This document shows positions 23,731 through 51,995 of a stretch of 64,000 bases of DNA, one piece after another (within the stretch, counting starts at the first letter, position 1; each line of letters opens with the position of its first letter). The DNA is taken from assembly GCA_026129095.1 (NCBI GenBank), contig JAHCIT010000001.1:186245-250244 (forward strand), in the 5' to 3' direction. Below the pieces are notes generated by a model. That model was not told where the DNA came from, searched no databases, and saw nothing but the letters and a program-made list of their open reading frames with translations. A program made the translations under genes and the position numbers. The stretch comes from Deltaproteobacteria bacterium. Lineage in GTDB: Bacteria; JAGRBM01; JAHCIT01.

Positions 23731-23747
23731 GTGACATGATATGTCAC
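23731..23747 (-). promoter_or_regulatory. palindromic box 1 (GTGACA-N5-TGTCAC)
   Basis: gtgacatgatatgtcac; on the minus strand followed by N10 and AATGCT. Confidence 0.75.
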
Positions 23748-23765
23748 CGGAGCAACGTGATGAGG

Positions 23766-26351
23766 TCATGCATAGTCAGCAGCCAATAAGCCTTCGAACA
23801 AGCTCTTTGCGCCCGACGCTTTCATTACCGCCTGACGAACATCGGCACGGGTCAGATCCAGCACACGCAACTTGCCGCCAACTTCAGCAACCGATTCGAT
23901 ACGACGGTAAAAGCTTGAGTGTTCCTGTGCATAGGCAGCCAGCCCCTGAAGCTTGGGCAGCGCATCAGCCAGATGCAGTCCATGCGGATCGACTAAATCC
24001 GCAACCACCTTGCCATCCTGCTCAGCAAAGAAAATGAAATCCGGGCGGACGATCTTGAACTGTTCATCTTCGACGTAGGCGATCCCCAGCGAGGATTGCC
24101 CCGGCTGCTGCGGATTGCGATACCAGAAACGGAAACCGGCGCGATTGGACTCGGTCTCAACAACGGTGCGCTCCCAATCATTCAACTCGGCTGGGTATTT
24201 GCCGTCCTTGTCGGCAAGCAGATGGCGCTGCCAGGTTGGGAGCGTAATTATCTGGTCGTTTTCACGTGCCTTGGTGGCCTCATAGCGAGATTCAGGCTTG
24301 GCCAAATCCACATTCTGCGGCTCGGTGCTCATCTCCACAATCTGCCGGTAGGATTCCTTGCGGTCGTCCGAAAGCTTCTTGATCTGCGGCCCATAAGTCC
24401 TCAGCCATGCCTTTGCAAGCTTGTCGGCTTCGGCATCGAAGTATGGTTGAATCTCGGTAACCAAACCTAAACCCGCGACAGTGACACGAGCCTCGGTGAT
24501 GGCCTCAAGAAACTCTTCTGGATCATCGTCCACGTTAGCGATCTGTTTCGCCAAATGCTCGACGTAGGTACGTGCGATGTCCGGACTGAAAATTCGCGCC
24601 GCGCGCCTGAAGGCATCGTCAACCACTGCGACATCTGCATCCTCCCAGAATTCGTCGAAAGTTTTCGCCTTGCCTTTCATATCAGTGACGACCGTCTCGC
24701 CATCCACTGTCAACACTGACTTGCGCTTGGCCTCGATCTTTTCTTTCTGAGTCTCCTGAAATGCGTCTAGAGCCTTGTGCATCACCCCATGGGCCAGCTT
24801 GCCCGCATCAGCAAGGATACCGTCAGATGCCAACTCGTGAGCCAATGCCGTCAAGCGTTTTGCCGGTTTCGCGCCACGCTGCGGGCGGGTTTGCGATGGC
24901 AAGGATTCGAAAGCCTCCCAAACCACTGCTGACGCGTCCGGGTGGGGCTTCACCTCCACATATTCGATGAGAATGCGACCGGAAGGCGGGGCCGAATCAT
25001 CACCCTTCATCAAGACATCGACAACTTCTTCGACCGCTTTGCGGTTGAATTTCGGCAGCAAACAATCCACTGCATTCAGTCGGTCGTTGCCTGGAATGCG
25101 GCGAGCCAACGGCGAGCGCACCATCCGCCCCAGCAATTGGGTGATGTGGGTCCGATCGCTGGCGGCGCGGAAGGACACCATCACTTCAGCGCGAGGGCAG
25201 TCCCAACCAGTGCTGATGGCATCCTTGGCGATCAACACACGCACCCAGATGGAGTCCTGAACGCGTTGCGGCTCGATGTAAGGTACGTCGCGAGTTCCGA
25301 ATCGTTGCGTGCTGTGTTCGCCAAAAACGTGCGCCACGCTAGCAGCCGGCAATTCGGGATAGCGCTCGAAGATGGTTTCCAGTGCCCGCCCAATCTCGTT
25401 CGGGTCAGGTGTATTGGGAACTTGCAACACCATCAAAGGCACAACGACGCGCGCTTCTTCTTGCTGCTTGGCGTATTCGTACCAGGCGACAGTTGATTCC
25501 TTCAGCTTATCCGTAGCACGCCGCACCAGTACGGTATCGAAATCACCGGTCTCTGTGGGAATGTCCAGCAATATGGTGTCTTTGATAAGGCCGGATTCCT
25601 GCACTTTCACCGCATCCACTACCACGTTTGGCAGCTTGCTGTGCTTACCCGCGGACTCAATGGCCTTGTTGAAACGCTCCACCGTCGCCGAAATTCCCCA
25701 TATCACCGGTATGCCGGTCACACTGCCAGAGCCGTTGATCAGGCGCTGTACGATGGTGTTTTTTTCCTTAATCGTCGCATTGCCCATGCCACGGTGCGCT
25801 TCGTCCAGCACCAGGTACAAGGTCAAATCCGGATCGTCGATGGTGTTCTGAATCGTGTCCCATATGGTGTAGGCACGAAGGTCGGGGCGGATCGCCGGTA
25901 GCAATGCCCCCGCCCTGGCCTCCAATTCCTCAAGATCATGGCCGCGTACCAGCAGACTATTCTTGCTTAACTTCTGGGTGTTGAGAAAATAGATTTTACC
26001 GGCCTCAAATCTAGGGCGATTAAAGGTATTTTCCACCACAACCATATCGGTGTATTTGATGCGGTCGCTGGCTTCCATCAGGCGGAAGCGGGTCTGCTCG
26101 TTCAATGACGGATCATCGCTGAACCAGATCACCACAGCGCTGGGGTCGGCCTCAAAATCGAATTCGTCGTCGCCGTAAAACAGCGCCTCGAACGCAGCGG
26201 CCGCCATCACGGTTTTACCCGCACCAGTGACCGCAGTCAGAGAAAATGCCGTCTTATCGGACTCGCCATGCCATCGGCTGCGTGCTTTTCGAAGATGATT
26301 GAGGACATCGCGCACGGCGTCGCGCTGATAATCCTTGAGGGTAAACTTCAT
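23766..26351 (-). CDS. type III restriction-like SF2 helicase/endonuclease (Res)
   Basis: LKDYQ, TGAGKT, DEAH, SAT, TGWDCP, QLLGRMVR; C-terminal RPDFIF...VDPH nuclease-like region. Confidence 0.88.
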   Translation of the reverse strand: MKFTLKDYQRDAVRDVLNHLRKARSRWHGESDKTAFSLTAVTGAGKTVMAAAAFEALFYGDDEFDFEADPSAVVIWFSDDPSLNEQTRFRLMEASDRIKYTDMVVVENTFNRPRFEAGKIYFLNTQKLSKNSLLVRGHDLEELEARAGALLPAIRPDLRAYTIWDTIQNTIDDPDLTLYLVLDEAHRGMGNATIKEKNTIVQRLINGSGSVTGIPVIWGISATVERFNKAIESAGKHSKLPNVVVDAVKVQESGLIKDTILLDIPTETGDFDTVLVRRATDKLKESTVAWYEYAKQQEEARVVVPLMVLQVPNTPDPNEIGRALETIFERYPELPAASVAHVFGEHSTQRFGTRDVPYIEPQRVQDSIWVRVLIAKDAISTGWDCPRAEVMVSFRAASDRTHITQLLGRMVRSPLARRIPGNDRLNAVDCLLPKFNRKAVEEVVDVLMKGDDSAPPSGRILIEYVEVKPHPDASAVVWEAFESLPSQTRPQRGAKPAKRLTALAHELASDGILADAGKLAHGVMHKALDAFQETQKEKIEAKRKSVLTVDGETVVTDMKGKAKTFDEFWEDADVAVVDDAFRRAARIFSPDIARTYVEHLAKQIANVDDDPEEFLEAITEARVTVAGLGLVTEIQPYFDAEADKLAKAWLRTYGPQIKKLSDDRKESYRQIVEMSTEPQNVDLAKPESRYEATKARENDQIITLPTWQRHLLADKDGKYPAELNDWERTVVETESNRAGFRFWYRNPQQPGQSSLGIAYVEDEQFKIVRPDFIFFAEQDGKVVADLVDPHGLHLADALPKLQGLAAYAQEHSSFYRRIESVAEVGGKLRVLDLTRADVRQAVMKASGAKSLFEGLLAADYA

Positions 26352-26354
26352 GCT

Positions 26355-30724: not shown

Positions 30725-31239
30725 TACTTAGCCTCCGGGTCGTAAACGTCCCATTCGACCCGTTTCTGCCCGACCAGATCGCGGATCTCCTTCTGGGTGC
30801 TGCTTAGGCGCGCTTGGCCGGTCTTTACGTCCACAAAGAAAATCCGATCCACGCGGCCCTTCTCGGAGAGCCCTTCAAAGATCACGTAGTCGATGGGGTC
30901 GAACAGCGAGCGGCAATCGCCCGGGTTGAAACGGAACGACTTCATGGCAGGAGCCAGCCGTTCCAGAACAAATCCGATATTCGCCGTGTGAGCGGCGGTT
31001 TCAGAACGCTGCCTCAGCCGCTTACGGTCTTCCCGTACTTTGTCACGGCTTTCCTTGAGGGCTTCGAGCATCCCTTCGTAAACACCCCGCGCCTTGCTGG
31101 TGAACTGGTCCAGCCAGAACAGCCCGGCGTGCTTGAGGGAGATCTCCTCCTGGCAGCACGGGCAGACCGCAAAAAACTTCCCCGACGACAGCGAACGGAT
31201 CAGCTCCGCCGCCTCTTTGGGTACGACACTTTTAGCCAT
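30724..31239 (-). CDS. Holliday-junction-resolvase-related PD-(D/E)XK endonuclease, paralog 1
   Basis: ERLAP, FDPIDYVIFEG, FVDVKTG, LSSTQKEIRD. Confidence 0.8.
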   Translation of the reverse strand: MAKSVVPKEAAELIRSLSSGKFFAVCPCCQEEISLKHAGLFWLDQFTSKARGVYEGMLEALKESRDKVREDRKRLRQRSETAAHTANIGFVLERLAPAMKSFRFNPGDCRSLFDPIDYVIFEGLSEKGRVDRIFFVDVKTGQARLSSTQKEIRDLVGQKRVEWDVYDPEAK

Positions 31240-31262
31240 CGGTCGATTTCTCCGGCTTCCCG

Positions 31263-33197
31263 TCAGTCAATTCGGCTCTGATGGGACTTCAGTGTATTGA
31301 GACTGCTACCGATCCACAACAACCGCTCGGCCAGCTCAAGAGCGTCCACGGGCCAGAATTCGCATGGACGCGGACGATGAATCCGGCTCAGTCCATCGAT
31401 CGGCCTGCAAGTGAGGATCCGGTCACGCCACTGTGCGGGGACGGCCTCGCGGCCGTAGACCGCCCCAAGCAGCGCGCCGCAGATCGCGGCGTTGGTGTCG
31501 GTGTCGCCGCCCCGGCGGACGGTGTCGATCACACCCGCCTCGAACGACGGCGCGTGCAATAACTGGTAAAAGGCATTCTGCAGCGCGATCAGCACCCAGC
31601 CCTGCTGGTGCAGAAAGTCGTCCGGTGGTCCCTCGCTCGCGGCCTGGAGAGTGCGAATGATCTCCGGCGACAACTCCTGCTCAGCGGCGTACTGCCCGCA
31701 CCGGTCGAACACGACGTTCGCCGCACTGCCCCGGATCGCCTCGCGGATCGCAAAGGCAAAGAGGCGGTTCGCGTGGACACAGACCGGATTCGGATGGGTT
31801 AATTCCGCGTCTTCGCCCGCCCACTTGAGCGGAGCATCGGTATCTGCCGCTGCCGCGACAACTCCCAGGGGACTGATCCGCATGAGCCCGCCATTCGCCT
31901 GCGAATGAGGGGTGGCCGACTGGAGCGCCTCCGCCTCAGGGTCGCCGCCGTCACGGAGCGCCCGTGCGGCCAGCGCCAGAGCCTTCGCCGTGGTATTACC
32001 GATATCGAACGGCTTGGTATTGTACCAGTGAGCATATGCACGCGCCGCTGTTGCCCGCGAATATGTCCCGCTCTCCACAATCGAGCGCGCCAGCATCAGC
32101 GCCATTTCTGAATCGTCCGTCGGCTGTCCCGCGAGCGTCACCCAGGTTCCGCCTTCAAGCAGCTCCCGGGGACCGTCCGGGTACAACTTCGTGATGCTTT
32201 CCGGCCCCTTGAACTCGACGAGACTTCCGAGCGCATCGCCGGCGAACTGACCAAGAAGGCAACCCTGAGCGCGGGCGAGCTGTACGGGAGCAGTCTCCCG
32301 GTACACTTTCCCTTTTTCAGGCCGGATCAGGGGATACACGTCGTTCAGTGCCGATGGTTTGGCAAATACCCGCTCCCACGGTTTGCCGGCCAGTTTCTGA
32401 AGGTATTTCTCCCCGCCGCCGAAACACCGGCCTCCGCAACTGCTGCCGCCTGTGACGGAATAGGTAACAGGCTTGCCGCCAGCATTGATCAGCTCGCCGC
32501 CTGCGGCACGAATAAGCGCGTGCCCCGCCGCGTAGTCCCATCCGACCGGCCCGTTGAGCGAAACCGCCGCGTCGCCCTCTCCGGCCGCAACCAGCGCCAG
32601 CCGGTAGGCGATTCCGGGGACTGTCCGGAACCGCGCCGGAGCGGCAACTTCCGCATTGGCCATCGAGTTCTTGTCGGCGTCCTGGGAAACAAGAATGGTC
32701 GACTCCCGGCTGAGTTCATCCGCCCACTGGCGGATCACCGGCTGGCCGTTCCGGCGCAGCGGCCCGAAGCCTTCCGCCCAGGCGAACAGGTCTCCCTGAT
32801 CGTCCGGGGCACAGAATGCGTAGATGACGCCTAGCACCGGCTCGCCTGCCCGGAGCAGCGCGATCGATACCGCCGAGCCCCGGTGGTTCTTCAGAAAGGC
32901 GCTCGTGCCGTCGTTCGGGTCCACCAGCCAGCAGTGCTGCTTGTCGTCTGCGGGCGTTTTCTTTGCACCAAGCTCCTCGCCGGTGTAGCCGAACCCGTTA
33001 TCAGCGTAATCGGAGAACAGGATGCCGTAGATACACTTCTCGGCCTCCTTATCGATCTCGGCGTGACCGCCGGAACCTCGCGGACCGCCCTTCCGGTAGA
33101 ACTCGTTTCTGAGCATCTCCCCCGAACAGACCGCCGCCTTCACCGCCAGCGGAAGCAGGTGCTCGTAGGACCGAAGATAGGTTTCCAGACCAGGCAT
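31263..33197 (-). CDS. inositol monophosphatase / ADP-ribosylglycohydrolase fusion
   Basis: IMPase motifs GEE, WLVDPNDGT, WDYAAG; ARH motifs GDALG, TDDSEM, NGGLMRISP, GGDTDTNAA; ATG 33197 after GGAGGG. Confidence 0.88.
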   Translation of the reverse strand: MPGLETYLRSYEHLLPLAVKAAVCSGEMLRNEFYRKGGPRGSGGHAEIDKEAEKCIYGILFSDYADNGFGYTGEELGAKKTPADDKQHCWLVDPNDGTSAFLKNHRGSAVSIALLRAGEPVLGVIYAFCAPDDQGDLFAWAEGFGPLRRNGQPVIRQWADELSRESTILVSQDADKNSMANAEVAAPARFRTVPGIAYRLALVAAGEGDAAVSLNGPVGWDYAAGHALIRAAGGELINAGGKPVTYSVTGGSSCGGRCFGGGEKYLQKLAGKPWERVFAKPSALNDVYPLIRPEKGKVYRETAPVQLARAQGCLLGQFAGDALGSLVEFKGPESITKLYPDGPRELLEGGTWVTLAGQPTDDSEMALMLARSIVESGTYSRATAARAYAHWYNTKPFDIGNTTAKALALAARALRDGGDPEAEALQSATPHSQANGGLMRISPLGVVAAAADTDAPLKWAGEDAELTHPNPVCVHANRLFAFAIREAIRGSAANVVFDRCGQYAAEQELSPEIIRTLQAASEGPPDDFLHQQGWVLIALQNAFYQLLHAPSFEAGVIDTVRRGGDTDTNAAICGALLGAVYGREAVPAQWRDRILTCRPIDGLSRIHRPRPCEFWPVDALELAERLLWIGSSLNTLKSHQSRID

Positions 33198-33234
33198 AGA
33201 CCCTCCCTGAATAGAGGGATCTTGGCATGGGCCT

Positions 33235-33251
33235 GTGACAGGTAGTGTCAC
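33235..33251 (-). promoter_or_regulatory. palindromic box 2
   Basis: gtgacaggtagtgtcac; minus strand N10 then CAAGAT, toward the IMPase-ARH gene. Confidence 0.8.
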
Positions 33252-33307
33252 AGTTCCATAGCCACTTTAAAACCATCCTTTTGGCCAAAATAACGGCTCG
33301 TTAATCC

Positions 33308-33324
33308 GTGACACTGTCTGTCAC
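33308..33324 (+). promoter_or_regulatory. palindromic box 3
   Basis: gtgacactgtctgtcac; plus strand N10 then TATCGT (33335-33340). Confidence 0.8.
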
Positions 33325-33384
33325 AGAGCGCCGCTATCGTTGTCCAGCCGACCAGAGAGATCTGTCGGCCGGAGTGTGCAGGCG

Positions 33385-34712: not shown

Positions 34713-34748
34713 GCCGTCTTCCTTTCATAAAAAGTATGGCAGATGCCG

Positions 34749-34765
34749 GTGTCAGGCTGTGTCAC
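34749..34765 (-). promoter_or_regulatory. palindromic box 4 (1 mismatch)
   Basis: gtgtcaggctgtgtcac; minus strand N10 then CATACT. Confidence 0.7.
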
Positions 34766-34776
34766 CGGTTCAGGGT

Positions 34777-35223: not shown

Positions 35224-35233
35224 TTCGAGCCTC

Positions 35234-39819: not shown

Positions 39820-39823
39820 GCCG

Positions 39824-41308: not shown

Positions 41309-41332
41309 GGTTCCTCACCATACAATTTCGTT

Positions 41333-41349
41333 GTGTCAGGACATGACAC
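41333..41349 (-). promoter_or_regulatory. palindromic box 7 (symmetric variant GTGTCA-N5-TGACAC)
   Basis: gtgtcaggacatgacac; minus strand N10 then TATGGT, 8 nt before the DUF2779 ATG. Confidence 0.75.
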
Positions 41350-41356
41350 GATTCAT

Positions 41357-41728: not shown

Positions 41729-41826
41729 ATCTCAATCCCATTGTTCTCCCATTCAAAACAATGGAACAAACATCTTCTGCCAATATAAACTTGGTTGACA
41801 TATAGCACCTTGGATCAATCTGAGAA

Positions 41827-42501
41827 TCACTGCTCTCCGCTACCATCTGCTTCCGTGGCTTCAGAAAATGACACCGTAAGATCGTTGCTGTCTACAATAT
41901 TCCACATGCCATCTTTTTGTGTTTTTATCTTCCAGAAATTAGTTAGCTCAGTGCGAAGCTTTATCCAAAATGCTTCACCATCTTCTTTCCACATCCATTT
42001 AGCTCCATGAGTTTTATCTAATTTTTTAGTTGGTTTAGACGGCGATGTAAGAACGAGATGCGGAATTATTCGTAGGTTACTCACGTCCTTCTCACCCTCT
42101 GGGAAAAATAACGCTAATCGAGAAGTCTTAGAAGTAAATTGTTCATTACTCCATGACGTATCCGACTTTGCCTCCACAAATATTAGTCTTGTTACCAATT
42201 CTTTGTCTGTATTCCCTTCTTCATACGCAATAATCAAATCAATGTCTTCCTGGGTTCCCTTTATGGTCCCACGATTCTGTTCCTTCAATTTTGGATCAAG
42301 AACGGCCATCGCTCCCCAAATCCAATCTAAATGGTAGTCCATCGCGACAAAAGCTCTGTGTGGAATAGGAATATCTAGTTGACTCCTAAGCTGATAAATA
42401 AAGTCTGGGCATAAATTGAATGCATTCTGTGTGGAATGACATATCAAATGATACCTTTCTTTCCGGTTAAATTTCTTCAGATTCTCTATAAATTCATTCA
42501 T
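41827..42501 (-). CDS. putative PD-(D/E)XK nuclease (AT-rich gene)
   Basis: NRKERY, MDYHLDW, EDIDLII...FVEAK. Confidence 0.65.
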   Translation of the reverse strand: MNEFIENLKKFNRKERYHLICHSTQNAFNLCPDFIYQLRSQLDIPIPHRAFVAMDYHLDWIWGAMAVLDPKLKEQNRGTIKGTQEDIDLIIAYEEGNTDKELVTRLIFVEAKSDTSWSNEQFTSKTSRLALFFPEGEKDVSNLRIIPHLVLTSPSKPTKKLDKTHGAKWMWKEDGEAFWIKLRTELTNFWKIKTQKDGMWNIVDSNDLTVSFSEATEADGSGEQ

Positions 42502-42505
42502 TGCT

Positions 42506-42922
42506 TCACTCTCCCGTCAGATCCTCAAATACCTTATGTTCAATCGGCTGATCAAGTTCGTATTCGTCAGCCTGATAATTCGCATCGAAAACCTCATTCA
42601 CCCGCTTTCCAACGTCGATCCGTCCCTCGATCTCCTGCCTGACCGATTTCCCGTTCCCCTCCGGGTCGCCATCAGATGCAACACACCAGCACCTGATCTG
42701 CTCCACCCAGAACGGATTCCACTCGGCGCTCATCGTCAGGATGTGCTCAGGCCCCCTCCGAAAATCGTGGGTAACGGCCATGGCCGTCACCTTTCGCTTG
42801 CGGAACCGGTTCGGGAACATCCGGAGCGGCTTCTCGCCCGGAACCGCATCCTGAACCCGGACTATTACCGGCCGTTCGAGCATCTCTTCCGTGACTTCTT
42901 CTGTGCGTTTCAAGTCTGGCAT
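42506..42922 (-). CDS. hypothetical protein
   Basis: ORF in operon; ATG 42922 after GAGGA (alternative start 42934). Confidence 0.5.
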   Translation of the reverse strand: MPDLKRTEEVTEEMLERPVIVRVQDAVPGEKPLRMFPNRFRKRKVTAMAVTHDFRRGPEHILTMSAEWNPFWVEQIRCWCVASDGDPEGNGKSVRQEIEGRIDVGKRVNEVFDANYQADEYELDQPIEHKVFEDLTGE

Positions 42923-42930
42923 GGCGATCC

Positions 42931-43512
42931 TCATCCGGACAACGAGCGGTTGATCGAGTCGTATGAGGCAAGCAGGTCGGCAAGCTCCTCCGGATAATAA
43001 AGCCGGCAGAACGTGACGAGCCGCCACAAACCCTTTCCGGAGCCTTTGACCACGGGCCAGAGCCGCCCCACATCGGCAAGGTCTGTTTCCCTGCCGAGCC
43101 GGACCTTGGCAGCAGCAAGCCATTCAACCGGAACGATGCGTATTGTCTGCTTTTTGAACCGTAGCCGTGCCGCACGCTCCAGCGCATAGGCATCTGCCGG
43201 TCCGGCACCAAACACCAGATCCACGTCTAGTCCGGCCACGTGCCACGTCTCGCCGATCAGGTTCGAGACCCGGTCTTCCGGCGGGCAGAGTTTCCGGGCC
43301 GCCTGTGCGGTAGCTTCGGAGATCAGGATATCCAGGTCAGGTGAAATTTTCCGTTCCGCATAGCTGGCAACCGCTCCACCTCCGCAAAGGGCCCACCCGG
43401 CGGGAGGCAGCTTTTCCAGAAAAGCCAGCAAACTGGAGACAGACATGGGCGGATAGTCGGATTCCATTCTTTTCAAGGCCCGCTCCAGTAGCATTCCGTC
43501 CGGTTCAATCAT
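42931..43512 (-). CDS. Pol-beta superfamily nucleotidyltransferase
   Basis: CGGGAVASY...SPDLDILI, VDLV, K...GRETDLAD. Confidence 0.72.
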   Translation of the reverse strand: MIEPDGMLLERALKRMESDYPPMSVSSLLAFLEKLPPAGWALCGGGAVASYAERKISPDLDILISEATAQAARKLCPPEDRVSNLIGETWHVAGLDVDLVFGAGPADAYALERAARLRFKKQTIRIVPVEWLAAAKVRLGRETDLADVGRLWPVVKGSGKGLWRLVTFCRLYYPEELADLLASYDSINRSLSG

Positions 43513-44008
43513 TGGCCCATGCCTCCGGGATGTAATCCCCCGTTGCTCCACGCTGGTCGAGGAAGTCTCGTATGCGCGGCATTTCATGCGTCAGCAGTTC
43601 GTCTCGGCCGAGCCGCGATTCAACGATTTCTGCATGGCGGAATTCGCTATAGACCCATCCCTGATGACGGGCTTCACCTTCCCCAGACAGCAGCACGAGA
43701 CAACCGGACCAGAGGACTTCCGAACCCGTGAATGACTCGGTTTCGGCCGCTGGAGGAACCGGATCGACGAGTATCTCCAGGCAACCACACCGGCTGGCGA
43801 TCGCATGAGCCCAGAATGCCGCATCACCGATGCCCAGTGCCGTGTGAATGCTCAGATCACCGGCCAGTGCAGCAAACCAGTGTTCCAGCTCATCCCGGCG
43901 TTCCGGCGGAGTCTCATGCCGGACAGACCAATTCTCAAAAACCCGGTTGATGACGTCCGTTAGCGGACGGACCTCTATATCGTTTCCGATTACGACTGTT
44001 GTCCTCAT
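43505..44008 (-). CDS. hypothetical protein
   Basis: ATGA-coupled to the AAA gene; overlaps the next gene start. Confidence 0.55.
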   Translation of the reverse strand: MRTTVVIGNDIEVRPLTDVINRVFENWSVRHETPPERRDELEHWFAALAGDLSIHTALGIGDAAFWAHAIASRCGCLEILVDPVPPAAETESFTGSEVLWSGCLVLLSGEGEARHQGWVYSEFRHAEIVESRLGRDELLTHEMPRIRDFLDQRGATGDYIPEAWAND

Positions 44009-46074
44009 ACGGACCCCACTGGCTGCATGAATCCGACCCGGCGCTCCCGGATCTTCGCGTTTGCTTCATCCCAGAGGAGCCCGCAGAGGATTTCCGGATT
44101 CCCCAGCTGGCCCAGGATCCCGGCTTTCCGGTGAACCAGCGCGAAGTCCCCCGGCGTCAGGTTCGGGGGCAGAACGCTTCCGTCCGGCGGTTCCGTTCCA
44201 AAGTAGAGGCGGAACGCGGCGCGGCACTGCTCCGGCGACATGAACTTCAGGGTCACTTTGAACGTGAACCGGCGGAGCGAAGCAGCATCCAGGCGGTCGG
44301 AGAAGTTCGTCGTGCAGGCGAACGGCCAGTCGTGGGACTCCATCCAGGTGAGCATCTCGTTCACCTGCGTCACTTCCCAGGACCTCTGGGCGAGGTTCCG
44401 GTCCTGCAGAAGGGAATCGGCCTCATCGAAGACAAGGAACGCTTCCTCGTCGCGGGCATGCCGGAAGGCGGCCGCGATGTTTTTCTCGGACCCGCCGACC
44501 CACATGCTGAGCAGGTCAGAAGCGCGCTTCTGGATCACCTCGATTCCCATCTCGCGGGCGAGGTGGCGCACGAAGGCCGTCTTTCCGGTACCCGGCGGAC
44601 CTGACAGGCAAAGCGATACCCGGCGGGAGTTCTCCAGCGAACAGATATGACCTGACAGGTTCACCAGATCGGCATCGGCGTTGACCAGTGACAGATCGTA
44701 CCGGTCCGGACGTTTTTCCGGTTTTTTCTCGGGTGCCTCTCCCCGCATCAGCACGGATACGCTCCTCACAGCCTGCCGCACCTGTTCGGTCTGGCCACCC
44801 GCGAGCCGGGCCGCCCGGACTGCGCTGGCGGCCAGTGCAGGGGCTTCGCAGAAATCCCGGGCCAGCTTGCGGACCTCGTCCCCCGGAACCTCGACCGACT
44901 GGCGCTCCAGGAGCCGCTGCCACACCCCCTCCCGCACCTTGCGGGGCGGAACCTTCATCTCCAGCGCATAGGTCATCCGGCGCAGCAGGGCTGGATCGAA
45001 GCAATCCGTATCGTTGGTCGTCCAGATGACCGGGACCGGATTGTTCTCCAGCAACCGGTTCAGGAATACCTTTGAAAGCGAACTGTCCTCCCGGTCCCGG
45101 GACCGGGAAAGCAGGTCTTCCATCTCGTCGAACAGGAGCATCGAATTTTCAGCCCCGGCGAGGAGTGCACTCGCGATCTGGATGCCGGCGATCCGCTCGC
45201 TGGTCTTGGGCATCGATCCCTCGTCATCGCTTTCCCCGATGGAGTAGATCGACAGGCCGGCCTTCGCCGCGAGCACCTTGGCGAATTCCGTCTTGCCGGT
45301 CCCCGGAGGCCCGTAGAGCAGAATATTAATACCCCGTGCCTTTTCCCTCATGGCCCCGGAGAGAAGAGGCAGAAGGAAATCCCGGTCGGTGGCGACATGA
45401 CCGAAATCCTCCCACCCCAGTTCCGGCAGCTGGGGTTTGCCCGCGACCGCGCGTCGGAAGTCATCGACTCCATGGTTCGGCGGCATCAGTCCGCCGAGAA
45501 CCCGGTTCGGCACCTTGAGGCTCGAATCAAACTGCCCCTTGAAGGTCAGGTGAACCACCACCAGCCCCAGCCGGTACAGACGGGCCGAAGGCTTCATCCG
45601 GACCCGCACGGCCTCAGGATCGGCGGCAAGCAGCTTGGCGATCATGCCGTCCAGGCTCAGCACCCGGGTCGGCATGATCTCGTCGCACAGACGCTCGAAC
45701 TGATGGCAGGTCGCGTAACGGACGGCGGCTTCGAAAATGCCCTGCTCCAGGGGATCAAGGCCGAACTCCCGCGCGATGGCGTCGATATTCTGCTGAAAGA
45801 CACCGGGCGCTTCCGCACGGTTCTCCGCAAAGAACCGGTCCAGCACCTCATGCACGTCCTGAAGCCCCTTCTCCGGCTGGTTCGGTCTGAAGCGCCTGCG
45901 GCGCGAAGACCCATGATCTTCACCGCCAGGGGCCAGAAACGAGAGCCCGACCTCGGACCCTTCACTTTCCACCCAGCTCACCAGCTTCTGCACAATCGCG
46001 GAACGCGCTCCCAAGGACCGGGAGAGATTCCGCACGTACTGGATCACTGCCCAGTGTTCGTAGTTGATTTCCAT
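44005..46074 (-). CDS. double-domain AAA+ ATPase
   Basis: Two GPPGTGKT Walker A; FDEME and FDEAD Walker B; TTN...DPALLRR and TTN...DAASLRR; ends GF. Confidence 0.9.
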   Translation of the reverse strand: MEINYEHWAVIQYVRNLSRSLGARSAIVQKLVSWVESEGSEVGLSFLAPGGEDHGSSRRRRFRPNQPEKGLQDVHEVLDRFFAENRAEAPGVFQQNIDAIAREFGLDPLEQGIFEAAVRYATCHQFERLCDEIMPTRVLSLDGMIAKLLAADPEAVRVRMKPSARLYRLGLVVVHLTFKGQFDSSLKVPNRVLGGLMPPNHGVDDFRRAVAGKPQLPELGWEDFGHVATDRDFLLPLLSGAMREKARGINILLYGPPGTGKTEFAKVLAAKAGLSIYSIGESDDEGSMPKTSERIAGIQIASALLAGAENSMLLFDEMEDLLSRSRDREDSSLSKVFLNRLLENNPVPVIWTTNDTDCFDPALLRRMTYALEMKVPPRKVREGVWQRLLERQSVEVPGDEVRKLARDFCEAPALAASAVRAARLAGGQTEQVRQAVRSVSVLMRGEAPEKKPEKRPDRYDLSLVNADADLVNLSGHICSLENSRRVSLCLSGPPGTGKTAFVRHLAREMGIEVIQKRASDLLSMWVGGSEKNIAAAFRHARDEEAFLVFDEADSLLQDRNLAQRSWEVTQVNEMLTWMESHDWPFACTTNFSDRLDAASLRRFTFKVTLKFMSPEQCRAAFRLYFGTEPPDGSVLPPNLTPGDFALVHRKAGILGQLGNPEILCGLLWDEANAKIRERRVGFMQPVGSV

Positions 46075-46201
46075 ATGCCCTCCTTCAGGCAATGCGTGGC
46101 CAACGGCCTCAATCGGCCGGTCAGAACGCCAGTCCGCCAGGCATTCAGGTCACGTTATGAAGGGAAGCGGTGAACTCATGGGCATGAATATAACGGCCGC
46201 C

Positions 46202-46218
46202 GTGACAGGACATGTCAG
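46202..46218 (-). promoter_or_regulatory. palindromic box 8 (1 mismatch)
   Basis: gtgacaggacatgtcag; minus strand N9 then TATATT, toward the AAA operon. Confidence 0.78.
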
Positions 46219-46298
46219 CGAAGCTTTGAACCCTTCGATTTCACAGAGGAAAGATTTTGTTCCAGCCAATCGATAGCCACCATTAGATTTCAATACTG

Positions 46299-46748
46299 TC
46301 AGATTAGATCGTGACGTTTCATGCTCCCGTCAGAAGCGAGCTGGAAATAGAATGCACCAGTCGGATTATTTCGTGAGACTTCCGCTGGATCGAGCCGGTA
46401 TTCTGCGTATGCCTTCGATAGCACCCCTGCAATCTCGTCTGACCTCCGTTCGATTTCGCCCACACCGTCAAACCCGGTGAGGTGAACGATCCCGAACTCA
46501 TCGACTGCGGCTTCGTCATAAAGCTTCTTTACGCGGAGCTCATCTTCCGTAATGAGGGTCCGCTTTGTCAGGAAACTGCTCAGCCGATTCCACTCCTGTG
46601 TATCTTCAAATCGGAGCTGGATGACCCGGAAGTTGTACGTCTTAAGCGGAATCTGAAGGCAGGCCAGAGACACGTCTAGAATGAAGATGCCGCGGGAGCC
46701 CGGCCTAGGTTCACGCGCTATGGTCGGCTTACTATTCAAGTGAATCAT
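46299..46748 (-). CDS. hypothetical protein
   Basis: 149 aa ORF downstream of box 9. Confidence 0.5.
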   Translation of the reverse strand: MIHLNSKPTIAREPRPGSRGIFILDVSLACLQIPLKTYNFRVIQLRFEDTQEWNRLSSFLTKRTLITEDELRVKKLYDEAAVDEFGIVHLTGFDGVGEIERRSDEIAGVLSKAYAEYRLDPAEVSRNNPTGAFYFQLASDGSMKRHDLI

Positions 46749-46823
46749 TAATTCGTGATTTGCTACAGGTATCAGGATAACGACGGAACGGAATGGTCAT
46801 GGGACCTAGCATGCCATGCAGTC

Positions 46824-46840
46824 GTGACAGGACATGTCAC
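46824..46840 (-). promoter_or_regulatory. palindromic box 9
   Basis: gtgacaggacatgtcac; minus strand N10 then CATGCT; between divergent genes. Confidence 0.8.
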
Positions 46841-46895
46841 TACTTTGAATATGTGATTCGATAGTTTGTAGCTCTGCGCTACAATCCCGACACCC

Positions 46896-48569
46896 ATGGC
46901 ACGTATCTTCCCAACGCCCCTGCCGGACAGCGTCCGGAAGGAGCCTCGCCTCAACGCGGAGGTGAAGGTCTACGACCGGCTGGCGAAACTGCCGGGTCCC
47001 TACACCGTCTATTACTCGGTGCGCTGGCCGTCGAAGAACCCCAAGGGCCGGACCAGCGACGCGGAGGCGGATTTCGTCGTCGTCCATCCGGCGAAGGGTG
47101 TTCTCGTGATCGAAGTGAAGGGCGGCGGGGTGGCGCACGACGGCCCGACCGGGAAGTGGTTCAGCGTGGACCGCGACGGCCGGCGCCATGAGATCGATGA
47201 TCCTGTCAAAAAGGCGATGATCCTCAAGAACGATCTGGTGAAGCGGCTGAAGGAGCAGCCGGGCTGGCGGAACAGTGGGATGATCTGTCATGCGGTCGCG
47301 TTTCCCGACCTGCGGGACCGCAATACTCAGCTCGCACCCGACCTGCCCACCCCGATCGCCCTCTTCGAGCCCGACCTGATCTACCTGGAGGAAAAGCTGG
47401 AGTCGGCTTTCAGCTTCTGGTCGAACCAGTCCGCGCACCGGTCGGAGATGCTTGAGTCCGATCTGGCCGTCGTCGAAAGATTCTTCGCGCCGACCTATGA
47501 GCTGAGGAAACCGCTCGGCGTTCTCCTCTCTGACACCGATACGGAGATTTTCCGGCTCACGAACCAGCAGTTCGCCGTCCTCCGGTGCAACCGCCGCAAC
47601 GCCCGGGCCTCGGTCGCTGGAGGCGCCGGTACCGGAAAGACGCTGCTGGCCATCGAGAAGGCCCGCGAGTTCGCCCGGGATGGCATGAGCACGCTGTTCG
47701 TCTGCTTCAACAAGCCGCTCGCGGACTACGTGAAAACCGCGCTGGCCGGGACTGACGGCGTTACCGTCAGCACGTTCCACGGCCTCTGCCATGACTATGC
47801 GGAACGGGCGGGGCTCCCGGTGCTGCCGCTTGGCACCAAAGAGGTTCCGGCGGACTATTTCCGCAAGCAGCTCCCGGCGTGGATGAGCGAGGCTCTAGGG
47901 AAACGGCCGGACGACCGATTCAACGCGGTTGTCGTGGACGAGGCGCAGGACATTGAAGAGGACTGGTGGCCACTCATCCTCGGGACGCTCTTTGAACCGG
48001 ACGAACAACCGCTCTGGGTTTTCTACGATCCCAACCAGCGGTTCTACCGGCAGGGCTCGTCGTTCCCCGAGTTTGCGACCGAACTCACCTTGGACGAAAA
48101 CCTCCGCAACACGAAACCGATCCAGCAATTCGCGGCCCGGTTCTGCAGCAACGAAGAGTTTATTCCCGGCGGCCCCGATGGCCCGCCGGTCGAGCAGTTG
48201 AAACTCCCGTCCAACCTGAAGCTGGCCGACGCGCTCGAAACGGTCCTCGACCGGCTGATCCACGAAGACCTCATCCCGGCCGAGGAGATCGCCATCCTGA
48301 CCGGAGTGAGCCTCAAGAAAAGCGCACTCAACGGGATCAAGAAGATCGGGAACTGGGAGTTGACGCCATCAGACCAGCCGGTGCGCGGCAAGGTCGTCCT
48401 GGAAACCATTCACCGGTTCAAGGGGCTCGAACGCCAAGTGGTTATCCTCGTCGAAACCGAAAGCCTTGCCACCGCAACCGGCGACGAGAAGAAAGACCAG
48501 GATCACCGGAACCTGATGTATGTGGGGTGTACGAGAGCGAGAGGACTACTTATTTGCAATTCTGTTTAA
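46896..48569 (+). CDS. NERD nuclease + SF1 (UvrD-like) helicase fusion
   Basis: EADFVV...IEVKGG; GGAGTGKT; VVDEAQD; NLRNT; FKGLE; YVGCTRA. Confidence 0.9.
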   Translation: MARIFPTPLPDSVRKEPRLNAEVKVYDRLAKLPGPYTVYYSVRWPSKNPKGRTSDAEADFVVVHPAKGVLVIEVKGGGVAHDGPTGKWFSVDRDGRRHEIDDPVKKAMILKNDLVKRLKEQPGWRNSGMICHAVAFPDLRDRNTQLAPDLPTPIALFEPDLIYLEEKLESAFSFWSNQSAHRSEMLESDLAVVERFFAPTYELRKPLGVLLSDTDTEIFRLTNQQFAVLRCNRRNARASVAGGAGTGKTLLAIEKAREFARDGMSTLFVCFNKPLADYVKTALAGTDGVTVSTFHGLCHDYAERAGLPVLPLGTKEVPADYFRKQLPAWMSEALGKRPDDRFNAVVVDEAQDIEEDWWPLILGTLFEPDEQPLWVFYDPNQRFYRQGSSFPEFATELTLDENLRNTKPIQQFAARFCSNEEFIPGGPDGPPVEQLKLPSNLKLADALETVLDRLIHEDLIPAEEIAILTGVSLKKSALNGIKKIGNWELTPSDQPVRGKVVLETIHRFKGLERQVVILVETESLATATGDEKKDQDHRNLMYVGCTRARGLLICNSV

Positions 48570-50290
48570 TCACAGTCGCTTTCATCGTCCTCATCGTCAT
48601 TGCCACCATCCTCATCATCATCCACTTCATCTTCTTGTTCTTCTTCGGCCGCAATTGTATTCAATGATTCGGGCGAAAAATAAGGCGGCTTACCGAACCA
48701 CGAAATAAATGTCTCCACTAGCTTTTCTAATGATATAAAAGACTCATCATCTACAGAACACGAGGCCTCCACGTACTTTACCAGATCTTCTTCAGTCGTT
48801 TGCCCGCGACTACGTTCAACAAGGTAGCGAACCGGACCAGTCTTCCTTTTTAATCCCTTAAATCTATAGCCAACTACGGCCCAGACGAGATCAGAGATAT
48901 ATATTCTCATATTCTCTTCGCCTTGGGGCTCAGATAGATATATTATTTTTGACGATAACGTACGAATTTGAGCCAACGCATAACTTTTGTTTAACTGTGA
49001 CCGCACATCCTCATATAATACCTCCGATATTGATTTCAGCGCCCTCTTATATAGCTCTGTCTTGTTGTTCCAAGGCGCACCCTTTTTATAGTTGGATCTA
49101 ATTATTGCCTGATCCCAATTAAATTTCCGTGTTTTCCATTTATCTGGAGATGATAATCCGTCTTTCGCCAGATCATAAACGACTTTTTTTACAGTAGAAT
49201 CTAATTCTTTCCTAGACTTATTTATATGTATCGAGACACGTCTTTCACTTTCAGTAAGTATTCCAACTAATTCCGACTCACATTCCGATATCCTCTCATT
49301 CAAATCTTGGACATTTGAATTCGGTACCCAATAACCAAATGCAGTTTCGATGCCTGAAGTGCCAAATGCATTACTAATTTTCAGCGAGATACTTTTTAAT
49401 TTTTTCTGGACATCTTCAGGAAGCATTGGAACTGAGTAACTTGATCCCTTGTTACGTTTTTGCGCAATTCCTATTTTCCTTTTTGCTTCCTTTGTGAGCA
49501 TCCCCGCCCGATATAAATAATCTGATTTGATTTTGGCATTCGTTTTCTCCATATCGAAATCGTATGAAAGGAAAACGCCTTCGCTGATGAGGTCCATAAC
49601 AAAATCTTGCGGCCTATTTTTATAAGCCTTTATTGTTTCGGGATCGGGTGGCTTTATTTTCTCAGTCAGTTTATTGAATTTTTCTTTAACCTCATCGCGT
49701 CGACGTTTTTGATCCTCCAGCTGTTCTTCGGTCAATTCTATTTTAGCCGATGACTTTTCGATTAAGAATTTTGAAAGATCTTTTATGTTTTCTTTATCAA
49801 GTTTGTGGCAAGCCGGTTTAAGACTTTCAAATATATCGTGAATGTCCCGACGTAAATTACCGAGATTCCCTACAGCTCTTATTGCGATCTCGGTATTTGA
49901 TTTAAACGCTCTTTCGGTAAGATTAGTAGAGCCTATTAACAAATGATCCTGCCCGTCATCCCGGCCAAACCCAGCGTAAACTTTTGCATGCATCAAATAA
50001 TTTGTTTTTTGAAAACACACCCAAACTGAAATGTTTTTCGGCCACTTCTCAACATATACAGAGACACGATCATATAGTTCTTTAGAAGAAATATTAGACT
50101 GATCAATCCCAAACAATAATGTGATATTACCTCCTTTCCGAAGTGATTTTTTAATTTGATCTTCAATTATTTCAAACCCAGTTAGACTAACATATGCACT
50201 AATTACCCATACTTCCTGGGCATTGCCGATGGCATCGCGAACTTGTTCTTCCATTTCACCAGTTGCGCTAGTAACTATATTTAGTTCCAC
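48566..50290 (-). CDS. PLD (HKD) family nuclease-like protein with acidic tail (AT-rich gene)
   Basis: SAYVSLTG, MHAKVY, IGSTNLT..A...NTE; C-terminal D/E run. Confidence 0.8.
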   Translation of the reverse strand: MELNIVTSATGEMEEQVRDAIGNAQEVWVISAYVSLTGFEIIEDQIKKSLRKGGNITLLFGIDQSNISSKELYDRVSVYVEKWPKNISVWVCFQKTNYLMHAKVYAGFGRDDGQDHLLIGSTNLTERAFKSNTEIAIRAVGNLGNLRRDIHDIFESLKPACHKLDKENIKDLSKFLIEKSSAKIELTEEQLEDQKRRRDEVKEKFNKLTEKIKPPDPETIKAYKNRPQDFVMDLISEGVFLSYDFDMEKTNAKIKSDYLYRAGMLTKEAKRKIGIAQKRNKGSSYSVPMLPEDVQKKLKSISLKISNAFGTSGIETAFGYWVPNSNVQDLNERISECESELVGILTESERRVSIHINKSRKELDSTVKKVVYDLAKDGLSSPDKWKTRKFNWDQAIIRSNYKKGAPWNNKTELYKRALKSISEVLYEDVRSQLNKSYALAQIRTLSSKIIYLSEPQGEENMRIYISDLVWAVVGYRFKGLKRKTGPVRYLVERSRGQTTEEDLVKYVEASCSVDDESFISLEKLVETFISWFGKPPYFSPESLNTIAAEEEQEDEVDDDEDGGNDDEDDESDCD

Positions 50291-50388
50291 TATTTACTCT
50301 CCCCTTGGATTATTAGTTTGTCATTGTGACGCCATGAAGCTCGCTGTCGTCACTTTTATGATGCCTCAATGCCCTATTGGTTTCTGGA

Positions 50389-50751
50389 CTAGGTGAACGA
50401 ATTTAACGCTCGCCTCACTCCGTCCATTTCCTCGCCCGGCTTCGTCAACCCCATCTTCTCCGCGCAGGTCATACAGAACGCCGCAAGCTGCTCCGCGTGG
50501 CGGACGCTAACGATGTGGTCCGACGGCTCCATAGGCGGCTCACCGAGGGATTTCCTCTTTTCGTTGATTTGATTCTGTCCCTCGTAATGCTCTGCGGTCA
50601 AATCTTTGGCCGAAATCGGGTCCATCGATTCGAAAGACAGGGTAACACACGCGTATACTTGGCTTTCCCGGATATCCGCTTTGCACCGGGCACACTCCAG
50701 GACCACCGGTTTCACAGGATTGTCAGGATTAATGCTTCTCAGGCGGACCAT
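50389..50751 (-). CDS. hypothetical zinc-binding protein
   Basis: CARC...FCMTC; GGAGG RBS; overlaps the upstream stop. Confidence 0.55.
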   Translation of the reverse strand: MVRLRSINPDNPVKPVVLECARCKADIRESQVYACVTLSFESMDPISAKDLTAEHYEGQNQINEKRKSLGEPPMEPSDHIVSVRHAEQLAAFCMTCAEKMGLTKPGEEMDGVRRALNSFT

Positions 50752-51827
50752 GCGTATTCCTCCAGTATGGGCGATTTAAGGTTTTCAATGACAACGGGTT
50801 TCGGTTTCGGGGGCCGCTTCCGCTCGGCGGCCTTGAGGATCTTCTGGGCGGCGCGCTGGATCCGGCTCATCTGTTTGTGAAGATCCTCGACCCGGTTTCC
50901 GAGCCAGTTCCGGTCCTCCCAGAAGGCGATGTAGACCGGCGCGGCCGTCGGCAGTTGAAGCGCCTTGGCGACGATGTAGGCGACCGATTCAGCCTCCATC
51001 TCGCGCTGGCCCTTCTCGATCGCGGTCAGGAACCGGTTGATGAATATCGCCTCGTCGCCCTGTTCGGCCGCCAGCTTGCGCCGCCGCTCCAGTTCCGCCT
51101 GATGGAGCAGTTCATGGGCCAATTCATGAATCAGGACCAGGGACCGCTGGACGGTCGGCAAGGCCATATCCACTTCGACTGAGCCGCCGTGCGACCGGCC
51201 CTGGTATCCCGCTTCCAGATCCGCTTTGGGTTTAATTTCAATGCCCAGATGGGCCGCGCCATTCCGCAGCCGGTCCCACCACGGGGTTTCGCCCTCTACC
51301 GAGCTGGTCAGTTCCGGGAGCGGGTCGCCCTCCGTCTGGGAGATGTCATAGACCCGGCCGCCCCAGAAACTGACGGCGCAGATCACCCAGATCGGCTTCG
51401 CATCCGGCTTGACGGTGCGGTTGTATTGCCGCCAGACCCGCCGGCTCGCCACGCGCCGGGCCTCGGGGAACTGCTCCCGGATCCAGAGGATGTTGTTGAA
51501 CGAGTAGCAGTTGAACGCGGCACAGGCGTCCAGCCAGTTCACCCACTCATCCGACAGCCGGACGGCATCGGTCTCTTTCGCCAGATCCCCGAGCCAGACG
51601 TGGGCCTTTTCCCGGACCCGCCTCCGGGCCGTCCGGAGATCGACCTCTACCCCCGGCACGGCCGCGACCGGCTCCGCCACCTGTGCCAGGAGGGCGGCCC
51701 GCTCCGCCGCACGCTCTGCCTTCTGTTCCTGTCGCCGTTGCTCCCGGCGTTCCTGCCGCCATTTCCGATCAAGCGCCCGGCGCTCCCTGGTGGCGAGAAA
51801 CCTCCTGTGCTTCTTCCTGATCGCCAT
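50739..51827 (-). CDS. ArdC-like ssDNA-binding / metallopeptidase protein
   Basis: YSFNNILWI...VASRRVW...RTVK; VYDISQTEG; LIHELAH; EMEAESVAY; YIAFW. Confidence 0.82.
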   Translation of the reverse strand: MAIRKKHRRFLATRERRALDRKWRQERREQRRQEQKAERAAERAALLAQVAEPVAAVPGVEVDLRTARRRVREKAHVWLGDLAKETDAVRLSDEWVNWLDACAAFNCYSFNNILWIREQFPEARRVASRRVWRQYNRTVKPDAKPIWVICAVSFWGGRVYDISQTEGDPLPELTSSVEGETPWWDRLRNGAAHLGIEIKPKADLEAGYQGRSHGGSVEVDMALPTVQRSLVLIHELAHELLHQAELERRRKLAAEQGDEAIFINRFLTAIEKGQREMEAESVAYIVAKALQLPTAAPVYIAFWEDRNWLGNRVEDLHKQMSRIQRAAQKILKAAERKRPPKPKPVVIENLKSPILEEYAWSA

Positions 51828-51878
51828 GCCGCACCTCCCGAAAATCAGCCATTGACAGGTTCACTATAAGGGGTGCCT

Positions 51879-51895
51879 GTGACAGGTAGTGTCAT
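51879..51895 (-). promoter_or_regulatory. palindromic box 10 (1 mismatch)
   Basis: gtgacaggtagtgtcat; minus strand N10 then TATAGT, toward the ArdC-like gene. Confidence 0.8.
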
Positions 51896-51950
51896 AGTTC
51901 TGGAGGGGGCTTAGGAGCCATTTGGAGGGGTTTTAACGATAGCGGGACCG

Positions 51951-51967
51951 GCGACATGATTTGTCAT
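51951..51967 (+). promoter_or_regulatory. palindromic box 11 (2 mismatches)
   Basis: gcgacatgatttgtcat; plus strand N10 then TATATT (51978-51983), toward the HAD gene. Confidence 0.68.
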
Positions 51968-51995
51968 TTGGGGCGGCTATATTTGGCTCAAGAAC

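Follow-up and report, generated by a model that had tools for sequence, protein, structure and literature searches.

A palindromic box in the -35 slot of 11 promoters on a tmRNA-gene island: probable members of a lineage-wide regulon of the DriD/DdaA type

The closest described relatives of the promoter system considered here are controlled by two transcription regulators with WYL domains, DriD of Caulobacter crescentus and DdaA of the Moraxellaceae. DriD binds the palindrome ATACGAC-N7-GTCGTAT (PMC10853764, PMC12041258, PMC13004042), and its effector is single-stranded DNA (ssDNA) (PMC9186387, PMC10853764, PMC12041258, PMC13004042). According to the cryo-EM work, its box overlaps the -35 slot of promoters that have no -35 element, is equally far from the -10 element on all regulated promoters and, beside driD itself, fires the divergent operon (PMC13004042). 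In the DriD structures, R37 reads G2 of the half-site and R41 reads the G paired with C4, position 3 is weakly contacted and E40 contacts the outer C. The targets named in the available portions of these reports are didA, bapE, dnaG, recJ, the neighbouring operon and a site at recA (PMC10853764, PMC12041258, PMC13004042). A similar arrangement is described here in a 64-kb stretch of DNA from a Deltaproteobacteria bacterium (assembly GCA_026129095.1, contig JAHCIT010000001.1, positions 186,245 to 250,244), hereafter the window, in which a palindromic box occupies the -35 slot of 11 promoters of an integrative island. These 11 transcription units are probably wired into a lineage-wide alarm regulon of the DdaA/DriD type.

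DdaA is a homodimeric activator with a winged helix-turn-helix (wHTH), a WYL and a WCX domain, and its motif is CGWCA-N5-TGWCG (Song et al., NAR 2025, PMC12392091). Its regulon includes recA, ssb, uvrA/C and other genes together with 27% of the restriction-modification (RM) systems and 90% of the CRISPR-Cas systems in Acinetobacter, where the motif is found some 50 bp upstream of the start (PMC12392091). In basal lineages DdaA coexists with LexA, recA being common to both, and horizontally transferred ddaA copies have been reported (PMC12392091). PafBC of mycobacteria, also an ssDNA-triggered WYL activator, governs a large DNA-damage regulon through promoters that depend on a -10 element plus the activator (PMC11804915, PMC6789036); it is a heterodimer encoded by two tandem genes, which recognizes a non-palindromic site at -26 and binds only with RNA polymerase (PMC13004042, PMC12041258). 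BrxR and CapW are WYL repressors of adjacent defence loci, and CapW senses ssDNA (PMC9122601, PMC9122589, PMC11662680, PMC13622015). The principle is already published, for DdaA in 2025 and through the promoter structures of DriD in 2026; judged from sequence, the system in the window is a member from an unexplored class that joins a DriD-like register to a DdaA-like motif and regulon.

The box pattern GTGACANNNNNTGTCAC (GTGACA-N5-TGTCAC, up to two mismatches) matches the window 11 times, against 1.43 matches expected; the maximum in 100 shuffled controls was 6, and none of the 100 reached 11. The boxes start at 23731, 33235, 33308, 34749, 36353, 36915, 41333, 46202, 46824, 51879 and 51951, and all are intergenic, given sensible start codons. 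Each is followed by an NANNNT hexamer, after a gap of 10 nt (N10) at 9 of the 11 sites and of 9 nt (N9) at two (36915 and 46202); in box order, the hexamers are AATGCT, CAAGAT, TATCGT, CATACT, CATAAT, TATCGT, TATGGT, TATATT, CATGCT, TATAGT and TATATT. Counted 17 bp back from the hexamer, the 6 nt of the -35 slot belong to the box (CATATC, CACTAC, CACTGT, CACGTC etc.) and are not TTGACA-like. A sigma-70 consensus scan of 33000-52500 found no match at the nine box promoters there, with 9 matches overall against 9.7 expected. A TGn precedes four of the 11 hexamers, mostly those without an initial T, and nine of the 11 promoters point along the minus strand. With starts predicted from the -10 hexamers, the box centre would lie at about -31 in all 11 island promoters. 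The site-by-site reading agrees in these points with the first-pass annotation of the window, which had listed the same 11 boxes, spacings and hexamers, all intergenic and without a -35 element.

The half-sites vary between GTGACA and GTGTCA, with G2 and C4 constant and an A/T wobble at position 3, a pattern like that of DriD, in which the two guanines are the bases read by arginines. The core of the box is G(A/T)C-N7-G(A/T)C, and its full form is GTG(A/T)CA-N5-TG(A/T)CAC. Once the sites are turned to face their hexamers the spacer is asymmetric, reading GTGACA-YNTCC-TGTCAC, with the CC beside the proximal half-site. The resemblance to DriD lies in the GAC-N7-GTC core and in a box that covers the -35 slot, at fixed distance from the -10, of promoters without a -35 element. 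In an oligonucleotide printed for DriD (PMC13004042), about 11 nt separate GTC from ACAATC, the hexamer having been assigned here; the equivalent distance on the island is 12 nt, and 11 nt at the N9 sites. DriD and the present box are unlike in the flanks of the half-sites (ATACGAC against GTGACA). With DdaA the inner GWCA-N5-TGWC is identical, and the outermost bases are T/A here versus C/G in the DdaA motif. Other origins for the box were rejected: the sites share 17-21 nt and no more, which does not fit a repeat or a miniature inverted-repeat transposable element. The CRP-like motif is GTGA-N6-TCAC and the E. coli-type LexA motif is CTGT-N8-ACAG; the box matches neither in spacing and half-site order.

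The register of box and hexamer extends over the genome to which the window belongs (G000; 3.67 Mb on 23 contigs). A search with GTGWCA-N5-TGWCAC, allowing one mismatch, gave 35 matches, 26 of which could be oriented from the spacer asymmetry alone. NANNNT stands at offset 10 in 18 of these 26 sites and at offset 9 in two, every other offset from 0 to 29 being occupied at most four times; on the distal side it stands at offset 10 in 2 of 26. Counted together, box and hexamer at N9/10 occur 42 times in G000, versus 9-16 times for seven control offset pairs. The N9/N10 register is genuine and has a direction.

About 15 further box promoters lie outside the island, so that the genome has about 26 dispersed sites altogether. 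Their density is about 90 times greater on the island (11 in 28 kb vs about 15 in the other 3.64 Mb). The first-pass annotation had seen no box in the host flanks, which holds within the window and fails genome-wide; likewise, comparison of the island with the whole genome shows the box to be denser on the island and not confined to it, with the N9/N10 spacing at 20 of the 26 oriented sites. Among the genes preceded by a box are recA (GTGCCACGTCCTGTCAT-N10-CATACT), dnaB (ATGTCACGCCCTGACAT-N10-TAACCT), rmuC, hsdM of a type I RM operon, a type III Res gene, a PLD-family gene and the gene of a 1110-aa PD-(D/E)XK (AddB-like) nuclease. A gene for a Cas12b/C2c1-like protein of 1477 aa also stands behind a box (N10, CAGTAT); it occupies 2390-6823 of locus L009 (G000 C9:22000-30482), and behind it a CRISPR array with at least 19 repeats, each of 36 nt, reaches the end of the contig (L009 7158-8482). 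A second ArdC-like/HAD module, 70-82% identical to that of the island and with its own boxes and, inserted between them, a 388-aa gene of unknown function, lies at C19:37010-40443 (L008) and C19:18007-18330; this module may belong to another related island. For a methyltransferase candidate on C18 the hexamer is out of register (TAGGTA at N10), and a box match before an Omp85 gene is probably due to chance. At the level of box promoters, the predicted content of the regulon is recA and other DNA-damage genes with RM and CRISPR. The same combination is found in the DdaA regulon. The few targets reported for DriD, in the available portions of those reports, include no named RM or CRISPR genes, unlike the RM and Cas12b genes preceded by boxes here.

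Six species-level genomes (G000-G005) represent the class, two of them added by widening the sample to order and class; they are mutually related and not independent. Exact boxes were counted per strand with the pattern GTGACA-N5-TGWCAC, and the reversed pattern served as control. The forward/reverse counts are 12/12 in G000, 14/10 in G001, 16/17 in G002, 10/9 in G003, 9/7 in G004 and 1/1 in G005, with zero matches to the control in all six, and the box is enriched in five of the six. All six have a box before recA, followed at N10 by NANNNT in five and by TATAGG in G005. For 15 of the 16 boxes of G003, NANNNT stands on the CC side at N10, and these precede recA, dnaB, DUF2779, AddB-like nuclease, PLD, hsdM and ArdC-like genes and multi-copy genes resembling phage Mu Gp27. 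Six box promoters of G003 (L044, L045, L048, L050, L051 and L055) are nearly identical, with TGn, N10 and CAGGCT; L045 and L050 share an open reading frame (ORF), the L045 copy of which scores as Mu Gp27-like, and the other four precede genes without a Pfam match. This looks like a multi-copy mobile element that uses the same box. A box subtype, with a distal GTGACAT exclusive to genomes that carry the island's WYL gene, was considered and rejected, as G004 has such boxes and that gene was not found in it.

The island encodes one WYL protein, WYL-I (36976-37995, plus strand; 339 aa), which consists of a wHTH domain, a three-helix bundle and the Pfam WYL and WCX domains, and whose gene has no WYL neighbour. 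Its promoter is of the sigma-70 type (TTGCCC-17-TAGATT, 36941-36969, plus strand), and its mRNA is predicted to be leaderless because the ATG lies 6 nt past the hexamer. Box 36915 ends 44 nt before this ATG, and its centre is about 53 bp upstream of the predicted WYL-I start. Since the -10 hexamer of this box (TATCGT, N9) is on the far side, the box would serve the divergent 105-aa ORF and not WYL-I, just as the box beside driD serves a divergent operon. The box upstream of the WYL gene had been part of the first-pass proposal; its distance of 44 nt stands, and its -10 faces away. In four of four aligned WYL-I loci the box is invariant, with a diverged flank toward the divergent gene, and TTGCCC and TAGATT are invariant as well, the ATG following 6-7 nt after the hexamer. 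Orthologs with 79-88% identity occur once in G001 and twice in G002. The family is rare, with only two clusters at E<=1e-30 among 1.84 billion representatives. A metagenome scan with the relative P0007 (42% identity to WYL-I) gave no more distant locus, a scan with alignment A4 gave only L069 (88% identity), and a scan of genome contigs gave three loci, all on contigs of G001 and G002. In L069 the boxes are kept at syntenic promoters, and the spacers and flanks have changed.

A second WYL protein, WYL-H (357 aa; G000 C1:489227-490105), whose gene adjoins one for an ABC-ATPase, shares about 29% identity with WYL-I and is present in all six genomes of the class. In a tree of 61 WYL proteins the two fall in separate clades, so that WYL-I is a xenolog and not a recent copy. 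Both align with full-length DriD (8tp8), which is the best solved-structure match of each; residues 12-339 of WYL-I align with DriD 1-327 at E 3e-8, and the alignment of WYL-H has an E-value of 8e-12. Identity to DriD is about 25%, and the wHTH, three-helix bundle, WYL and WCX arrangement is the same. R50 and R54 of WYL-I correspond to the guanine readers R37 and R41 of DriD, and R50, T51 and R54 (WYL-I numbering) do not vary among WYL-I, P0007 and four sequences of WYL-H. At the position of DriD E40, WYL-I has R and WYL-H has Y, and the outer base of the box is T here. Residues G18 and A20, which contact RNA polymerase in DriD, are not kept in WYL-I (A30 and L32). Five of the 11 ssDNA contacts of DriD have equivalents in WYL-I (DriD/WYL-I: Y168/Y177, R176/R185, Y192/Y206, W206/F220 and Y240/F254), and WYL-H retains arginines that match DriD R176 and R178. 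For DdaA an R-to-A signature has been reported (PMC12392091). In the sister family, the WYL-H genes are themselves directly preceded by a box, with N10-TATTCA in G004 and N9-TATGCT in G005. The first-pass annotation had proposed a search for the box around homologous WYL genes, and boxes do stand there, at each of the five WYL-I loci and at the two WYL-H loci of the sister family, the association with WYL-I being observed within one class.

The association with WYL genes bears on the notion that some other factor reads the box and the -10 element, such as a different transcription factor that acts as a dimer, a regulator of the MerR kind or an alternative sigma factor. The distal GTGACA is indeed one mismatch away from TTGACA and stands 20-21 bp from the hexamer, as in a MerR-like use of the -35. 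MerR-type operators, however, are located inside the spacer between -35 and -10, and a palindrome would be unexpected in the -35 element of a sigma factor. The GWC-N7-GWC core, its A/T wobble and the arginine pair fit the read-out of DriD and DdaA specifically, and the boxes adjoin WYL genes in five WYL-I loci and both sister-family WYL-H loci; a factor without a WYL domain is very improbable.

Since WYL-H is present in all six genomes, it appears to be at least as good a candidate for the regulator as WYL-I. The first-pass annotation had assigned all 11 promoters to WYL-I, as an island-wide regulon, and had named binding of the box by a host factor as evidence to the contrary; a core paralog that is an equal or better candidate points, in part, that way. 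If WYL-I were nevertheless the regulator and the 11 promoters its private set, the other box promoters would belong to mobile DNA that makes use of WYL-I. The perfect box 44 bp upstream of WYL-I in four of four aligned loci and in L069, the two guanine-reading arginines kept in WYL-I and the concentration of boxes on the island all agree with such a scheme, and several targets outside the island (RM, CRISPR and ArdC-like modules) may be mobile themselves. It is nonetheless unlikely, for recA, dnaB and the AddB-like gene carry boxes, the recA box occurs in all six genomes including G003, G004 and G005, where WYL-I was not found at E<=1e-25, 15 of the 16 boxes of G003 have a canonical hexamer, and the -10 next to WYL-I faces away from its gene. 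With the same box and spacing before recA, dnaB, rmuC, RM and Cas12b genes elsewhere, the island-private regulon is not supported; what stands of the proposal is a palindrome in the -35 slot together with a wHTH-WYL-WCX regulator.

LexA is encoded in G000 as well, as in the lineages where DdaA and LexA coexist, and the box could be read as a repressor operator, of LexA or of a WYL protein of the BrxR/CapW type, that is vacated after DNA damage. A palindrome before recA and before genes of mobile elements is the classic LexA picture, and the operators of CapW and BrxR, WYL repressors that respond to ssDNA or are tied to defence, are palindromic. Within 200 nt upstream of lexA (L064), however, there is no box at up to three mismatches, and a different palindrome, TATACGTATA, is present. 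Moreover, the box promoters have no -35 element and several have weak -10 hexamers, so that they would be nearly silent unaided, and a strict N10/N9 register with a spacer asymmetry tied to direction typifies activators, whereas operators vary in position. BrxR and CapW share with the present system the tie between WYL regulators and defence islands; they exert local repression of an adjacent system, in contrast to about 26 dispersed sites without a -35 in fixed register. Repression through the box is quite improbable.

Two further elements may be compared with the lexA palindrome. A similar one, TATACGTAT, abuts the dnaB box (G000 C12:124557 region), and the recA leaders of G000 (C8) and G003 contain a conserved GGTTGCGTATA(C/G)AAACC. 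It is possible that TATACGTATA, TATACGTAT and GGTTGCGTATA(C/G)AAACC are LexA operators, in which case recA and dnaB would be doubly controlled.

The preferred explanation, an alarm regulon common to the lineage in which the 11 units of the island take part, is fairly likely to be correct. According to this explanation, the boxes are sites of a homodimeric wHTH-WYL-WCX activator of the DriD/DdaA class. The box would take the -35 slot of a promoter that has the -10 element alone, and the dimer would recruit or stabilize the housekeeping RNA polymerase holoenzyme. Because the promoters have only this element, firing would require the ligand-bound regulator on the box. The analogy with DriD, DdaA, PafBC and CapW makes ssDNA, arising from DNA damage or from the processing of foreign DNA, the probable ligand. 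Activation triggered by ssDNA or damage, as the first-pass annotation had supposed, is also the most likely mode in the light of the published work on DriD and DdaA. Its PafBC-like label has become weaker: reliance on a -10 element plus a WYL activator is common to both, and the palindromic box and lone WYL gene are as in DriD and DdaA and unlike PafBC. The output would be a joint programme of repair and immunity that includes recA, dnaB, rmuC, the AddB-like nuclease, type I and type III RM genes and Cas12b, with the 11 units of the island carried along. That the regulator binds the box, that it activates and does not repress, what its ligand is and which paralog acts where are all inferred in this explanation; the motif with its spacing, orientation, conservation and gene contexts, and the homology with its conserved base-reading residues, are observed.

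As to the two paralogs, WYL-H as primary regulator and joint control by both are about equally likely, and WYL-I acting alone is unlikely. As a second input, WYL-I probably recognizes the same box. A more tentative proposal is that the ligand pocket of WYL-I has diverged, so that this transferable island of defence and anti-defence genes obeys the ssDNA alarm of the host and also fires the whole regulon, host recA, RM and Cas12b included, on a signal of its own. Such an arrangement of two regulators and one box would spread with the island.

Several observations weigh against the preferred explanation. The WYL-H gene has no box upstream in the four genomes of G000's own family, and the link between WYL-H and the box therefore rests on the sister family and on conservation. 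WYL-I was not found at E<=1e-25 in G003, G004 and G005, drafts that are 95, 96 and 93% complete, and it has no equivalents of the DriD ssDNA contacts S172, R178, R189, R204, R207 and R288. In Acinetobacter the motif of DdaA is placed about 50 bp upstream of the start, compared with a predicted centre at about -31 here, and only the WYL-I gene has a box near -53. WYL regulators found beside defence genes, BrxR and CapW, are repressors. RNA library X4 and DNA run X1 match parts of 31001-41000 with short, low-depth contigs that are uninformative on starts, strand and expression.

The island itself spans 41 kb (15.75-56.7 kb) and is integrated at the 3' end of the tmRNA gene (56675-57040, minus strand). 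These limits follow from an exact 25-nt repeat of the tmRNA gene 3' end, with attL at 15726-15750 (25/25) and attR at 56675-56699, from a tyrosine integrase gene that abuts the tmRNA gene (55369-56673, plus strand; XerC, XerD and integrase models) and from the host genes for OsmC and an E1 dehydrogenase left of 15726. A stretch of 19 nt from the 3' region of the integrase (56601-56619) is repeated at 15879-15897, possibly as a remnant of an earlier insertion. The left arm (16170-23026), where boxes are absent, contains two genes with Fic domains, one SWIM/DUF6880 gene and genes for a HipA-like kinase and an AbiEi-like antitoxin; the island is thus composed of a box-free toxin-antitoxin arm and a box-saturated arm. 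In the latter, between 23.3 and 52.9 kb, nearly every transcription unit begins at a box, four such units being of unknown function, and only the WYL-I and NERD-UvrD helicase genes have -35/-10 pairs of their own. None of 10 island proteins has a match in PHROGs, and most of the small ORFs of the island have none in Pfam. At 23709, 41308, 51996 and 36976, 5-12 nt separate the -10 hexamer from the start codon and there is no Shine-Dalgarno sequence, from which mRNAs that are leaderless or nearly so are predicted.

In the left part of the box-saturated arm, box 1 (23731-23747, minus strand; N10, AATGCT at 23715-23720) precedes a gene of about 140 aa (23287-23709, minus strand) of unknown function, without a Pfam or PHROG match, whose ATG at 23709 is only 5 nt after the hexamer. 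Box 2 (33235-33251, minus strand; N10, CAAGAT at 33219-33224 with TGn before it), which is kept at the syntenic position in L069, precedes an IMPase-ARH fusion gene (31263-33197, minus strand). Genes on the same strand continue from there down to 23766 and encode two Holliday-resolvase-like nucleases, a PDC-S14/DUF4357 protein, an SprT-like protein, a type III methyltransferase (PADLOC, 931 bits) and a ResIII helicase. Box 3 (33308-33324, plus strand; N10, TATCGT at 33335-33340) precedes a PcfJ-like gene that runs from an ATG at 33385 to 34539. Box 4 (34749-34765, minus strand), with TGACAC as its proximal half and CATACT at N10 (34733-34738, TGn), precedes a 72-aa ORF (34494-34712). Box 5 (36353-36369, minus strand; N10, CATAAT at 36337-36342), also kept in L069, precedes two minus-strand genes, one for a 339-aa protein of unknown function (35234-36253) and one for a 148-aa protein (34777-35223). 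Box 6 is the one next to WYL-I (36915-36931, minus strand; N9, TATCGT at 36900-36905); its divergent 105-aa ORF lies at 36558-36875, and the box recurs in L069.

Box 7 (41333-41349, minus strand), in the GTGTCA...TGACAC form with TATGGT at N10 (41317-41322), precedes a DUF2779 gene (39824-41308), a DnaB_C-like gene (38872-39819) and a 262-aa gene, all on the minus strand. A 66-nt direct repeat (83% identity; 38761-38826 and 39824-39889) lies at the 5' end of the 262-aa ORF (38033-38821) and at the 3' end of the DUF2779 gene, both of which are on the minus strand. Box 8 (46202-46218, minus strand; N9, TATATT at 46187-46192) precedes a double AAA+ (IetA-like) gene (44005-46092) and then five genes of unknown function, in same-strand ORFs that reach 41357. 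Box 9 (46824-46840, minus strand; N10, CATGCT at 46808-46813, TGn) precedes a 149-aa gene (46299-46748), and on its other side the NERD-UvrD helicase gene (46896-48569) has its own promoter, TCGATA-16-TACAAT. Box 10 (51879-51895, minus strand; N10, TATAGT at 51863-51868) precedes an ArdC-like gene (50739-51827), a 120-aa ORF and a PLD-type nuclease gene (48566-50290) on the minus strand; the ArdC-like module, with a box of its own, is found also on contig C19 of G000 and in G003. The stretch 48000-50300, which covers the PLD-type nuclease gene, has a GC content of 44-45% within an island of 58-60% and was probably inserted recently into the ArdC-like unit. Box 11 (51951-51967, plus strand; N10, TATATT at 51978-51983), the weakest, with two mismatches, precedes a HAD hydrolase gene (51996-52868). 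On its opposite side a -10-like TATCGT faces the ArdC-like gene at N9, and this box may be used in both directions.

Compared with DdaA, the present system belongs to an unrelated, barely sampled class, and it differs in having one mobile island with 11 promoters and a second, divergent WYL gene. In the literature searched, supplements aside, no case was found of an integrative island saturated with such promoters that brings its own divergent WYL gene. If the preferred explanation is true, ssDNA sensing by a WYL protein would couple repair to RM and CRISPR, beside LexA, in a deep uncultured class far from the Proteobacteria. The promoter rule of DriD, by which the box fills the -35 slot and keeps a constant distance to the -10, would then be general enough for a regulon to be predicted from sequence alone. 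The island would be a mobile element that has placed nearly all of its transcription units, through 11 promoters over 29 kb, under the alarm circuit of its host and has brought its own paralog of the regulator, and it would offer a testable model for how mobile defence islands stay silent until foreign or damaged DNA appears.

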